A stretch of 63,060 nt of DNA, the filler included, from Octopus bimaculoides (Eukaryota), in the NCBI RefSeq assembly GCF_001194135.2. It is 7 parts of 7 records of this genome, joined end to end, with 100 filler letters (N's around TTAATTAATTAA, not from the genome) between each part and the next. Parts side by side here need not be neighbours in the genome. Positions count along the whole stretch, not along the records: positions 1 to 8,096 come from NC_069000.1; positions 8,197 to 17,166 come from NC_068985.1; positions 17,267 to 28,753 come from NW_026425679.1; positions 28,854 to 42,515 come from NC_068981.1; positions 42,616 to 46,907 come from NW_026364107.1; positions 47,008 to 52,001 come from NC_068990.1; positions 52,102 to 63,060 come from NC_068997.1. One strand, written 5' to 3'. Positions 5,654 to 60,924 of the stretch are shown here, piece after piece; the first letter of the stretch is position 1, and every line of letters begins with the position of its first letter. A model generated the notes under the pieces. That model worked only from the letters and a program-made list of their open reading frames with translations. It did no database searches and had not been told where the DNA came from. Both the position numbers and the translations under genes were made by a program.

Positions 5654-7727
5654 CTGAAAGAGAAGAGAAACTTTTTTTAAGCATGTGTGAAAATGTACAA
5701 AAGAAATGTAAAAAACCCCCCAAAAAACTACAATATATATATATATATATATATATATATATATATAGCATCCAGCTGTAAAAACTATGTCAAAACTGAC
5801 TGAAACGTTAAAGACTTTCTCTATTCCCAAGCGTTAAACTAATACATCCTTTTGTTGTTTACACCACCTGTCCTCGTCTGTTGTTGTTTTTTCTGTAAAT
5901 TCTCCCATATATATGTATATATATGTATGTATGTGTGTGTGTGTATGTGTATATATATATATATATATGTATGTATATATATGTGTGTATATACATGCAT
6001 AAATATATATATTTTCTCTCTCTTATTCTTTTACTTCCTCTTCTCTCACTATTCTATCCTATTACTCTGTCACTCTGTCACTCCTCCTCTCTTGCTCACA
6101 TGACCATTGGCCAAATTTCTTTCTCTCCATTGTAGATAGAACAAGGAAGACGTGTTCTTGTTTGTCTCCTGTCCTAGCTTGATTTACATGTTTGCTACCA
6201 CAACCTCGTTTAGGCTTACCAGCACTTCCTGTTTGTTTTCATTGTTCTGTTTGTGTTACTTATTTTGACCCTCCACAAAACCCCAAATTTTATTTAATTT
6301 GCTTTGCAAAAGCAACCGTTTTATCGAAAGCATATATTGTTGTTAAATGCTCGAAATACAAGACTAGAAAAATAGCCAACAACTGATGAAGGGTTATTCT
6401 TTATGTTGTTTGTTTTGTTTCTATTTGTGTTTTTCGTTGTTCGAAAGAACAGTTCATGTTTCATGCATGTGTGCTTTGTACCTTTTTGTTGTACACATTT
6501 CATGACATCCTGTACCCACATATGCATATATATATATATATANNNNNNNNNNNNNNNNNNNNNNNNNNNNNNNNNNNNNNNNNNNNNNNNNNNNNNNNNN
6601 NNNNNNNNNNNNNNNNNNNNNNNNNNNNNNNNNNNNNNNNNNNNNNNNNNNNNNNNNNNNNNNNNNNNNNNNNNNNNNNNNNNNNNNNNNNNNNNNNNNN
6701 NNNNNNNNNNNNNNNNNNNNNNNNNNNNNNNNNNNNNNNNNNNNNNNNNNNNNNNNNNNNNNNNNNNNNNNNNNNNNNNNNNNNNNNNNNNNNNNNNNNN
6801 NNNNNNNNNNNNNNNNNNNNNNNNNNNNNNNNNNNNNNNNNNNNNNNNNNNNNNNNNNNNNNNNNNNNNNNNNNNNNNNNNNNNNNNNNNNNNNNNNNNN
6901 NNNNNNNNNNNNNNNNNNNNNNNNNNNNNNNNNNNNNNNNNNNNNNNNNNNNNNNNNNNNNNNNNNNNNNNNNNNNNNNNNNNNNNNNNNNNNNNNNNNN
7001 NNNNNNNNNNNNNNNNNNNNNNNNNNNNNNNNNNNNNNNNNNNNNNNNNNNNNNNNNNNNNNNNNNNNNNNNNNNNNNNNNNNNNNNNNNNNNNNNNNNN
7101 NNNNNNNNNNNNNNNNNNNNNNNNNNNNNNNNNNNNNNNNNNNNNNNNNNNNNNNNNNNNNNNNNNNNNNNNNNNNNNNNNNNNNNNNNNNNNNNNNNNN
7201 NNNNNNNNNNNNNNNNNNNNNNNNNNNNNNNNNNNNNNNNNNNNNNNNNNNNNNNNNNNNNNNNNNNNNNNNNNNNNNNNNNNNNNNNNNNNNNNNNNNN
7301 NNNNNNNNNNNNNNNNNNNNNNNNNNNNNNNNNNNNNNNNNNNNNNNNNNNNNNNNNNNNNNNNNNNNNNNNNNNNNNNNNNNNNNNNNNNNNNNNNNNN
7401 NNNNNNNNNNNNNNNNNNNNNNNNNNNNNNNNNNNNNNNNNNNNNNNNNNNNNNNNNNNNNNNNNNNNNNNNNNNNNNNNNNNNNNNNNNNNNNNNNNNN
7501 NNNNNNNNNNNNNNNNNNNNNNTATATATATATAGATGAATGAATTATCCTTTGTTTACAGTTAACACAGAAAATTCAATAAGGAGTTACCATGGTAGCA
7601 AACTTCATGCAAGTAACAAGGATGTAGCGACCTACTCAAAGGTAGAAACTCAGGGTTAATGTGCAGTAATTTGTATAGTATAAGTAAATAAATGGAGTTG
7701 AACGCAGATGTTATTCAAATTCTTTTA

Positions 7728-7813
7728 CTTTCGACATATGTTTCGAAGACAGCATTGGTTTTATTCCAAAGGAATAAATGGTGTAAAATAATGTAATCTC
7801 CTCATCAGGAAAG
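7728..7813 (-). ncRNA. Type I hammerhead ribozyme fold, intact core, long helix II
   Basis: Minus strand: CUUUC-CUGAUGA-[GGAGAU...UUUAUUCC uuu GGAAUAAA...GUCUUC]-GAAA-CAUAU-GUC/GAAAG. Helix I is 5 bp, helix III is the palindrome ACAUAUGU, and the cleavage triplet is GUC. Confidence 0.8.
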
Positions 7814-7920
7814 AAAGAGAACCAATCTCAACAACACTTAATACTTAATAGCATTCTGTTTATCATTTATGCAGTCATCAAAATTGTTATAATGTGTTGT
7901 TGTTGAGTTTGATTCTCTTT

Positions 7921-8006
7921 CTTTCCTGTTGAGAAGATTACATTATTTTACACCGTTTATTCCTTTGGAATAAAACCAGTGTTGTCTTCGAAACATATGT
8001 CGCAAG
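7921..8006 (+). ncRNA. Mirror hammerhead copy with mutated core (CUGUUGA)
   Basis: CTTTC-CTGTTGA-GAAGA...TCTTC-GAAA-CATAT-GTC-GCAAG; A6U change and one helix I mismatch. Confidence 0.55.
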
Positions 8007-60309: not shown

Positions 60310-60354
60310 TCTGTGGACCGTGGATTCTGGATTATTTCCCTTCCTCGGCACAGA
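60310..60354 (-). ncRNA. Mirror hammerhead copy (core CCGAGGA, GAAU mutation)
   Basis: UCUGUG-CCGAGGA-AGGGAAAUAAUCCA-GAAU-CCACG-GUC/CACAGA. Confidence 0.5.
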
Positions 60355-60680
60355 ATAACTGCTTGGCTGAGATATATATAGTTTTCAAAGTGACACACAA
60401 AGTGATGCACAAACACTGATCTACTAAATAGAAACGTTATTATTTCTAAATCTCTCAACGAGAGACATACAATAACACTACTGTACCGAGACTGTCACAT
60501 TATGCTGGCAACTAACCTTTACTTTAAAGTACTGTTAATGTATGTCTCTCGTTGAGACATTTGGAAATAATAACGTTTCTATTTAGTAGATCAGTGCTTG
60601 TGTATCACTTTGTGTATCACTTTGAAAACTATATATTTTCGAACGAGAATTTAGCAGTGTCATCTCAGCCAAGCAGTTAT

Positions 60681-60725
60681 TCTGTGTCGAGGAAGGGAAA
60701 TAACCCAGAAACCGCGGTCCACAGA
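60681..60725 (+). ncRNA. Variant minimal type I hammerhead (core UCGAGGA)
   Basis: UCUGUG-UCGAGGA-A GGG aaauaa CCC A-GAAA-CCGCG-GUC/CACAGA. Helix I is 6 perfect bp; palindrome ACCGCGGU. Confidence 0.65.
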
Positions 60726-60924
60726 TATTGCTTTGTGCTGGGTGACGGTGCTGAGCTTCCCTGTTCGAAAATATAAGGACACAGATGTGTGTCATATAGC
60801 CAACTGGAGACGATGTTTCCTGGGGCTAAAACAACAGTAACATTCATCCCAAGCGGGACTGCCACATTATGTTGGCAAATAATCTATATTTTAAAGACTG
60901 TTACTCTATGTCTTTCGTATCCTT

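Follow-up and report, generated by a model that had tools for sequence, protein, structure and literature searches.

Here, we show that a stretch of 63,060 nucleotides of Octopus bimaculoides DNA (the window) contains hammerhead ribozyme motifs at seven loci, and that these motifs, though real, are for the most part remnants of the already described Penelope-hammerhead system. In our view they likely represent that system in two forms, namely retrozymes and truncated stubs of the Penelope-like element (PLE) type. Judged from its sequence, the family found at 44 and 60 kb (the 44/60-kb family) is a non-LTR retrozyme, and non-autonomous. Most copies in the window are probably dead. The results extend the Penelope/hammerhead/retrozyme system to octopod cephalopods and reveal no new kind of system, contrary to the original prediction of a hidden one. 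Cervera & de la Pena (2014; PMC4209133) described thousands of dispersed minimal hammerheads per genome, in many families and with opposite-strand pairs 100–700 bp apart, and retrozymes have been described as PLE dependants (Cervera & de la Pena 2020, PMC7229834; Li et al. 2026, bioRxiv 10.64898/2026.07.22.740005). What is new here is the octopod families, the Penelope-type insertion marks on a retrozyme and, possibly, a very high density.

All ten motifs named in the original prediction were located, at seven loci that group into six families, and with the helix III words listed there; all but one of the six families are confined, within the window, to their own locus. Type I hammerhead order with an intact core (CUGANGA, GAAA and UH joined by helices I–III) is seen in four of the ten, 7813-7728(-), 25509-25467(-), 25637-25595(-) and 44566-44608(+). 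The other six have decayed in core or helix, two of them being weakly supported, and a further decayed motif, at 29995-30030(+), had been overlooked. A descriptor of the intact core (CUGANGA + GAAA + UH, helix I score at least 4, helix II score at least 3) has no match in any of 40 dinucleotide shuffles made locally, over 500 nt. If up to two core changes are allowed, seven motifs are found versus a shuffle mean of 0.675 (maximum 2), the additions being 49985-49904(-), where G12 is lost, 60681-60725(+), where positions 3 and 4 are changed, and 29995-30030(+). A blind scan, made without any helix III requirement, returns four matches from three families; in all four, helix III is perfectly palindromic, including positions 15.2–16.2 and loop 3, the feature that marks PLE minimal hammerheads. 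The probability of this arising by chance across the three families is about 4e-4. The palindrome of helix III, predicted to be perfect or nearly so in every motif, is broken at 60310-60354(-).

Could the motifs be chance matches in AT-rich, repeat-rich DNA? We regard this as extremely improbable overall. The Rfam hammerhead models give no match at E ≤ 10 for the whole window or for two loci searched singly (the models may lack variants with a shrunken helix III), the descriptors were composed after the earlier finding had been read, and most monomer folds are unremarkable, only two of 11 motif-sized folds having fewer than 10 of 200 shuffles that fold as well. Against chance stand the shuffle result, the covariation described below and agreement with the published hammerhead consensus, which together largely refute it for 7.7, 25.5, 44.6 and 60.7 kb, but not for 53.7 and 58.6 kb. 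Neither 53657-53719 nor 58618-58668 is recovered by the first descriptor; relaxing it post hoc so as to admit them gives two matches versus a shuffle mean of 0.12, with two of 200 shuffles reaching two. Candidates at 15751, 46425 and 48323 have a weak helix II, are missing from the stricter scan and are likely chance matches.

Table 1. Hammerhead motifs and associated elements in the window.
Feature	Position	Strand	Details
Decayed EN+ Penelope-like element, 5′-truncated, RT then C-terminal GIY-YIG	164..2278	-	stops and frameshifts
Head-to-head inverted 3′-end pair, PLE-type foldback stub	7698..8036	.	arms 7698-7836 and 7898-8036, ending at (TA)n tract
Type I hammerhead with intact core and G10.1-C11.1; helix III palindromic over 8 nt	7728..7813	-	predicted cut after 7733
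Decayed copy of the 7.7-kb hammerhead	7921..8006	+	A6U; helix I broken, 1 contiguous pair
128-bp tandem array with N gap, retrozyme-like	24992..25712	-	period 128, 2.5 copies, 96% matches
Minimal type I hammerhead with U at position 17; core intact, helix II weak	25467..25509	-	
Second copy of that minimal hammerhead, intact core	25595..25637	-	
Decayed minimal hammerhead	29995..30030	+	A6U, G12A
Inverted, 5′-truncated copy of 44-kb unit	44228..44361	-	extends ~55 nt further 3′ than forward copy (one-sided extension)
Non-coding repeat resembling a non-LTR retrozyme, circularly permuted, ~1.1 units of ~350 nt	44383..44750	+	terminal redundancy 44390-44418 vs 44720-44748
Type I hammerhead, canonical dimensions, intact core	44566..44608	+	predicted cut after 44602
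Stub: one decayed hammerhead flanked by short inverted 3′ ends	49874..50083	.	
Decayed type I hammerhead	49904..49985	-	G12A, C11.1U
Decayed hammerhead-like fold	53657..53719	+	change at A9; helix II long; helix III almost palindromic
Stub with 46-nt inverted 3′ ends	58540..58750	.	95.7% over 46 nt
Hammerhead-like fold, 7-bp helix I, G10.1-C11.1	58618..58668	+	A at 3, C at 8
Inverted copy of 60-kb unit	60144..60485	-	contains decayed hammerhead 60310-60354
~1.2 units of 367-nt circularly permuted repeat	60487..60918	+	60487-60552 vs 60854-60918, 83%
Hammerhead of canonical dimensions	60681..60725	+	positions 3, 4 changed; A.A at helix II base

The 44/60-kb family is assigned to the retrozymes because it is a closed, non-coding, high-copy unit with a canonical hammerhead, a long rod and covariation. 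Its units, 62% identical to each other, measure 330 nt (in one copy with a deletion; GC 0.38) and 367 nt (GC 0.41), contain sense frames free of stops for at most 36 and 82 amino acids, and carry one type I hammerhead each, in keeping with the retrozyme definition (~150–450 nt without coding capacity, GC < 50% and a single type I hammerhead in each unit). In both subfamilies the unit is self-closing: the sequence upstream of the hammerhead leads back into the 3′ end of that unit, and this tail-to-hammerhead junction is spanned by further copies in both species sampled. Contigs aligned to the 44-kb unit number 3320 and 2171 in these two species, the alignment of reads and contigs having covered one of the seven loci (44100-44765). 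With 350–370 nt and a GC content of 38–41%, more than one unit per insertion and high copy number, the family resembles metazoan non-LTR retrozymes (PMC7229834; 350–390 nt in mussel). Unlike their long arrays, each insertion here consists of 1.1–1.2 units plus an inverted truncated copy, and the RNA circle is a predicted one.

The ribozymes of this family are of canonical dimensions, not minimal as predicted for all motifs. At 44566-44608(+), helix I has 6 bp and helix II spans four positions, the basal one a C.A mismatch, with a hexaloop. The A before GAAA is compatible in sequence with either such a mismatch or a core insertion; we prefer the mismatch because the dimensions then fit canonical hammerheads. 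Axolotl HHR_Amex2 likewise has a mismatch at this place (U.U, where the octopus copies have C.A or A.A). The exact 44-kb core pattern has no match in metagenome contigs. The hammerhead at 60681-60725(+) caps a rod of ~55 bp (z -8.3, 0 of 200 shuffles), and in its inverted counterpart at 60310-60354(-) the GAAA box is changed as well. Covariation in helices I and II, which had been proposed as a check, is indeed seen between the subfamilies: four of six helix I pairs and one of three helix II pairs (five of 11 pairs in all) are changed on both sides, a count based on only three sequences, effectively two lineages. Paired cells amount to 97% in the alignment versus 15–52% for slid registers. At the two central positions of the helix III palindrome, reads of the family depart from the window almost equally often, at a depth of 114,550 and 114,904 of 125,529 in X1 and 9,559 and 9,702 of 18,594 in X19 and, in the RNA runs, in 124 and 121 of 158 reads in X21 and 88 and 88 of 105 in X22; these counts are per position and unphased, and the two changes occurring together would keep the palindrome.

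The layout of the insertions suggests a PLE enzyme. At both 44 and 60 kb, an inverted, 5′-truncated copy with a one-sided 3′ extension accompanies the forward copy, the ends being offset by ~55 and ~27 nt; family-wide loose ends lie at 44232 and 44748. Insertions of EN+ PLEs likewise show a partial tandem, an inverted 5′-truncated copy, one-sided extension and a microsatellite bias (Craig et al. 2021, PMC8557442). Earlier arguments for PLE mobilisation drew on co-occurrence, hammerheads in common, a tandem layout and homology to pLTRs. The layout described here is an independent, countable mark bearing on which enzyme moves animal retrozymes, and, if the reading is true, it would amount to direct footprint evidence for their mobilisation by PLEs.

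The 25-kb array is probably also a non-autonomous retrozyme. It contains two complete hammerhead units, and thus the two consecutive complete hammerheads that Li et al. (2026) take as the mark of an active element and that are absent at 44/60 kb. Partial units lie at 25.0–25.1 kb, one with its CUGA box deleted. The 128-nt unit is smaller than the 170–400-nt circles reported in 2020 (PMC7229834). This array and the 44/60-kb family are the only places where a short repeat around the motif, predicted for every locus, is directly seen. An excess of G-to-A/A-to-G differences at 25.5 kb was considered and may be a sign of RNA editing. Rfam returned 149 rows for the window, nearly all driven by microsatellites; a Zeta-pan match at 25.5 kb (E 6–7) was disregarded.

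Alternatively, all loci, including 44/60 and 25 kb, may derive from the pseudo-LTR ends of autonomous PLEs by truncation or local duplication, without an independent element or RNA circle ever having existed. Cervera & de la Pena read most dispersed motifs as truncated PLEs (PMC4209133), Li et al. found PLE matches in 21 of 57 Xenopus retrozyme families and proposed local tandem amplification from pLTRs, and no discrete RNA is seen in the RNA-seq runs considered below. This account is nevertheless unlikely, in that the sequence upstream of the 44/60 hammerheads re-enters its own 3′ end and not an ORF, with the junction repeated in other copies, and the canonical dimensions and long rod are retrozyme-like.

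For the loci at 7.7, 49.9, 53.7 and 58.6 kb, the non-autonomous reading of the original prediction is less compelling; they look like 5′-truncated 3′ ends of autonomous PLEs, the simpler published reading. The arms of the 7.7-kb stub are 139 nt long and 94% complementary. The 30.0-kb motif belongs to a repeat that adjoins a microsatellite and of which the window holds four partial copies, the two changes at 49904-49985 would fit CpG decay, and no inverted arm was found at 53.7 kb. The 58.6-kb locus is the least secure; when the window was scanned for cores in which positions 3 and 8 form another Watson-Crick pair, under a strict helix II rule that this motif too fails, none was found. An inverted-copy layout is present at five of the seven loci (7.7, 44, 49.9, 58.6 and 60 kb), and the foldback loci at 7.7, 49.9, 58.6 and 60 kb might be MITEs or foldback DNA transposons, with the weaker folds at 53.7 and 58.6 kb as chance look-alikes inside. 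The inverted ends of 30–46 nt at 49.9 and 58.6 kb and the detection of 53.7 and 58.6 kb only by a descriptor tuned afterwards would suit such an origin, and a motif between inverted ends points to one end on either strand, so orientation alone is no proof. Yet a whole hammerhead lies inside each arm at 7.7 and 60 kb, the insertion ends at 44 and 60 kb are offset, and neither the covariation nor the blind palindrome result is expected of TIRs; we therefore consider a DNA transposon origin very improbable.

The predicted Penelope link is borne out by the inverted-copy layout, by the decayed RT and GIY-YIG element in the window and by a related PLE with a 3′ minimal hammerhead. The window element aligns with P0001 over residues 2–711 (tblastn, 42% identity, E 2.6e-142) and has 20 homologues; P0001 and P0006 carry RVT_1 and GIY-YIG domains. 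In the relative L001, a minimal hammerhead, read by eye, lies ~290 nt after the ORF; none was seen by eye in L002 or, by descriptor scans, at the 3′ end of the window PLE. The 3′ end of L001 gave only low, AT-rich alignment scores, without a significance test, against the seven window motifs and was not used. No hammerhead family was found to share sequence or an end with a PLE ORF, and no ORF adjoins any motif in the window, which is expected of truncated copies.

Under the two-form model, the first form (the 44/60-kb family and, probably, the array at 25 kb) would give rise to a tandem or more-than-unit transcript in which every hammerhead cleaves itself, two of them most likely pairing via the palindromic helix III into a double hammerhead. 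The resulting monomer of ~350–370 nt would be open to circularisation. A PLE RT/GIY-YIG protein, acting in trans, may then copy it beyond one unit and insert it at TA-rich sites, giving 1.1–1.2 units plus an inverted 5′-truncated copy with offset ends. Stubs of the second form (7.7, 30, 49.9, 53.7 and 58.6 kb) would be what 5′ truncation has left of PLEs or of their dependants; the hammerhead would survive in them because it lies 30–200 nt from the 3′ end. Most copies would later have decayed. Folding of dimers gives a mixed picture: the constrained fold at 7.7 kb has -38.6 versus a dimer MFE of -42.4 kcal/mol, the double-hammerhead fold of the natural 25-kb tandem has -34.0 versus -46.3 (12 kcal/mol higher), and for seven of the 10 constrained dimers the gap to their own dimer MFE exceeds 4 kcal/mol. 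Folded as a circle, the 60-kb unit is well paired (z -5.5 and -5.9; seven control stretches, -2.8 to +0.6), and so is its reverse complement (z -4.7). The 44-kb unit (z about -2) folds no better than its reverse complement, and the 25-kb unit has z +0.8.

The cleavage ends and circular RNA suggested as a check were not seen at the 44-kb locus in two RNA runs, of each of which ~6% was sampled (library selection unspecified). Of 754 (X21) and 720 (X22) reads aligned there, only 1 and 2 have at least 99% identity, and the ~60 reads per million from this family come mostly from diverged copies, in both orientations. Read ends do not pile up and orientations are similar, in what is ordinary RNA-seq, not a cleavage assay; tandem DNA yields the same junction as an RNA circle.

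Like the metazoan PLE hammerheads of Cervera & de la Pena (PMC4209133), a set that includes the molluscs Lottia and Crassostrea, the octopus motifs are type I, with palindromic helix III and U-rich upstream sequence, and occur in many unrelated families as dispersed single copies and opposite-strand pairs. Unlike them, they lack an attached ORF and have helix III words of up to 8–9 nt. The consensus extra base after A9 and G10.1-C11.1 are both present at 30.0 and 58.6 kb; at 7.7 kb the G-C occurs without the extra base, at 49.9 kb its position is G.U, and the feature is absent at 25.5 (which departs from the consensus in lacking G10.1-C11.1), 44.6 and 60.7 kb. Non-autonomous PLE dependants with pLTRs are known (Chlamys/MRC1; PMC8557442), but hammerheads are missing from most Chlamys elements, and the 3′ ends of the dependants are as a rule those of autonomous families; no such shared end was found here. 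A similarly shrunken palindromic stem III with dimer cleavage is reported for small PLE-associated hammerheads (Lunse, Weinberg & Breaker 2017; PMC5785218), which the octopus motifs resemble in sequence. The searchable supplement of PMC4209133 contains no cephalopod term, and the literature searched, with subscription papers, Lunse 2017 and the supplements of Li 2026 outside its scope, contains no octopod hammerhead families or PLE-type inverted retrozyme insertions.

Intact motifs occur once per 14 kb in the window (95% interval 5.5–52 kb); axolotl, whose 28.2 Gb contain 120,000 motifs, has about one per 235 kb. It is a tentative proposition, and as a whole a rather doubtful one, that octopods have the most hammerhead-dense animal genomes known together with an unannotated 44/60 retrozyme bearing a Penelope signature, a non-G-C (C.A/A.A) helix II base and, at 58.6 kb, a purine-3/pyrimidine-8 core pair. 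Annotation based on Rfam misses these motifs; the prior cephalopod count that we found, 235 in giant squid, is of Rfam hammerheads.

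Both strands of the window were scanned with a type I hammerhead descriptor, with 40 local dinucleotide shuffles as the control. Four matches have an intact core (see table) and the shuffles have none, so the motif frequency does exceed that of shuffled sequence. With up to two core changes allowed, there are seven matches against a shuffle mean of 0.675 (maximum 2); those gained lie at 49.9 kb, 60.7 kb and 29995-30030, the last a decayed minimal hammerhead that had been overlooked. Second arms at 7.9 and 60.3 kb are decayed hammerhead copies. The folds at 53.7 and 58.6 kb, admitted only by a descriptor tuned post hoc (two matches versus a mean of 0.12; 2 of 200 shuffles reach two), are the least secure motifs in the window. 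An Rfam search of the window found no hammerhead match, and the monomer folds of the motifs are mostly unremarkable. Together, these results sort the ten motifs that the original prediction placed at seven loci into four intact, four clear relics and two that are only probable relics. The proposed palindromic helix III is well supported: leaving helix III free in the descriptor returns the same four matches, all perfect palindromes, for which the probability by chance in the three families is about 4e-4.

Features located in the window
Feature	Position	Strand	Basis or remark
Intact-core type I hammerhead	7813-7728	-	Descriptor
Intact-core type I hammerhead	25509-25467	-	Descriptor
Intact-core type I hammerhead	25637-25595	-	Descriptor
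Intact-core type I hammerhead	44566-44608	+	Descriptor
Decayed Penelope-like element (PLE)	164-2278	-	42% identity to protein homologue P0001, residues 2-711; reverse transcriptase (RT) and C-terminal GIY-YIG
Host exon, Ig domain	5370-5639	-	One homologue, CDON-like protein of Argonauta hians, 76% identity
Host exon, ZIP zinc-transporter segment	about 54600-54780	-	
Decayed retroelement fragments	2741-3318, 38699-40497, 50570-51600		One LTR-element-type aspartyl protease, two RT-bearing LINE-like pieces
SINE-like dispersed families (abundant)	14166-14311, 34679-35120, 55065-55293, 17811-17915, 51825-52001, 44847-44938, others		Unrelated to hammerhead loci; no tRNA by ARAGORN
68-bp tandem array	42616-42929		4.6 copies with 96% matches; descriptors give no hammerhead

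The 44- and 60-kb loci share 62% identity over about 300 nt, in an alignment that runs through the ribozyme. Covariation, expected in helices I and II, is seen here: both partners differ in 4 of the 6 pairs of helix I and in 1 of the 3 pairs of helix II, and 97% of cells pair, versus 15-52% in slid registers (three sequences, effectively two lineages). The ribozyme had been described as minimal; its helices of 6 bp (I) and 4 bp (II) are instead canonical by the definition of Cervera 2014 (PMC4209133). It has a hexaloop, plus a 3x1 bulge directly outside helix I. In canonical type I hammerheads such loops make a tertiary contact, which the loops here may share. At 60.7 kb a long rod of about 55 bp carries the ribozyme at its tip (z -8.3, 0 of 200 shuffles); the homologous rod at 44.6 kb is weaker (z -1.6). 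This viroid-like rod (60630-60779) extends helix I, and its 44-kb counterpart retains the outer stem with different letters. In both subfamilies, sequence upstream of the ribozyme leads into the unit's own 3′ end, a junction also spanned by other copies in both species searched, and no long open frame was found in the unit. Judged from sequence, the family is thus best read as a circularly permuted non-coding unit of 350-370 nt, that is, a non-LTR retrozyme rather than a minimal motif of a PLE pseudo-LTR (pLTR). Mussel non-LTR retrozymes are similar in size (350-390 bp; PMC7229834).

In public data, 3320 contigs of one species and 2171 of another align to 44100-44765 at ≥80% identity. Summed depth at the 44-kb core is about 190,000, against some 50 for the contig that matches the locus exactly. 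This suggests thousands of copies, though summed depth does not measure copy number. At both positions of the helix III centre the majority of copies depart from the window (44598 G>A and 44599 C>T), and in each of the four runs the two changes are about equally frequent; if both changes occur together, the palindrome would be preserved. Because neither 44579 nor 44592 appears among the 40 differences listed between family copies and the window, a listing that leaves out 192 further rows, copies throughout the family probably share the mismatch at the base of helix II. Known natural core variants include U3-A8 and U4C (PMC3088659) and U.U at the base of stem II (PMC7229834), and G3-C8 occurs as a laboratory construct (PMC3884650). 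The hammerhead-like fold at 58618-58668 has A3 and C8, one transition away from a purine-3/pyrimidine-8 pair; this putative inverted core pair is a lead only.

Insertions at 44 and 60 kb consist of 1.1-1.2 units plus an inverted 5′-truncated copy, and the two outer ends of each are displaced relative to one another, by about 55 nt at 44 kb and about 27 nt at 60 kb. Family contigs stop at 44232 and 44748, with low-agreement flanks beyond. The 7.7-kb locus is a head-to-head pair of 3′ ends, and at 49.9 and 58.6 kb one ribozyme-bearing copy is flanked by a short inverted 3′ end. TA tracts adjoin several insertion ends. Taken alone, the short arms of the 49.9- and 58.6-kb loci could also be those of a MITE. 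PLEs with a GIY-YIG endonuclease are described as leaving partial tandems, inverted 5′-truncated copies, one-sided extensions and a microsatellite bias (PMC8557442; PMC8969392), and the layout of the hammerhead loci resembles these PLE marks (PMC8557442).

In coleoids, Penelope elements are reported to be one of the repeat families that have expanded (PMC8967140). Besides the decayed PLE, the window has a second, weak fragment at 17.9-18.4 kb (E 1.7e-8). No hammerhead lies at the end of the decayed copy, and no sequence tie between any hammerhead family and a PLE ORF was found. Of two metagenome loci with PLEs related to that of the window, both read by eye, one (L001) carries a very small minimal hammerhead at positions 1504-1540, about 290 nt past the ORF, with a 2-bp helix II and palindromic helix III; the other (L002) showed none. 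An ORF fragment at 14577-15242, by eye like a PLE RT-to-endonuclease linker, contains an inverted 58-nt copy (14577-14634 versus 14832-14889); it is possibly another PLE stub, for which Pfam and tblastn give no support.

At 25 kb a 128-bp unit is repeated in tandem, and the array includes two complete ribozymes, consistent with the two-consecutive-units rule of Li 2026 (bioRxiv 10.64898/2026.07.22.740005). In the predicted fold of this natural tandem, the double hammerhead is disfavoured by 12 kcal/mol. Predicted swapped dimers lie 0 (60.7 kb), 0.6 (53.7 kb) and 3.8 kcal/mol (7.7 kb) above the dimer MFE, and seven others lie 6-21 kcal/mol above it. In published work, minimal hammerheads show weak cleavage even in dimeric form (PMC4209133), and of nine Xenopus dimers assayed, eight stayed uncleaved (Li 2026). 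When about 6% of each of two RNA-seq runs was aligned to the 44-kb locus, 754 and 720 reads matched, only 1 and 2 of them at ≥99% identity, and the two orientations were similarly represented. The 5′ read ends anticipated at the UH cleavage site do not pile up there or anywhere else on the locus in either run. This pattern is compatible with numerous old copies being transcribed passively; the reads are compatible with a circle being present or absent, because the library selection of both runs is unspecified.

Over 56 kb, the four intact motifs give a density of one per 14 kb (95% interval 5.5-52 kb), or of one per 19 kb (6-91 kb) if they are taken as three loci; these figures are biased upward because the window was flagged for these same motifs. 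The richest count available for comparison, that of axolotl, is about 120,000 motifs in 28.2 Gb, or one per 235 kb (PMC7229834; Li 2026). Earlier work reports that a single genome can hold thousands of minimal hammerheads belonging to many families, most of them dispersed and ascribed to truncated PLEs and some forming opposite-strand pairs 100-700 bp apart; molluscs are among the examples, and the searchable supplement contains no term for a cephalopod (PMC4209133). Animal retrozymes were later defined, with PLEs named as likely movers (PMC7229834), and Li 2026 contributes PLE-retrozyme co-occurrence and pLTR homology. A hidden, new mobilome is therefore not what we see: the window offers a real example of a known system. 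Its elements, mostly decayed, are a single clear retrozyme family whose insertions bear PLE-type marks, a tandem array, and several stubs of PLE type. The literature searched, which did not extend to Lunse 2017, yielded no account of hammerhead families in octopods.

The window is AT-rich, with a GC content of 0.37 over its 56,144 non-N bases, and microsatellites and N gaps are abundant. The match of the Ig-domain exon to Argonauta hians points to an octopod cephalopod as the probable host. One repeat family (6376-6525, +; 53410-53548, -; 76% over 66 nt) begins with a CUGAUGA box that is perfect and preceded by a short strand resembling helix I, and has no fitting GAAA box before (TA)n; it is a putative half-hammerhead or decayed family. 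A microsatellite-adjacent repeat at 29960-30157 has partial copies at 5803-5892, 17131-17166, 52987-53011 and 57500-57549. One of the five copies bears a decayed minimal hammerhead, and the repeat is possibly the commonest hammerhead family in the window.
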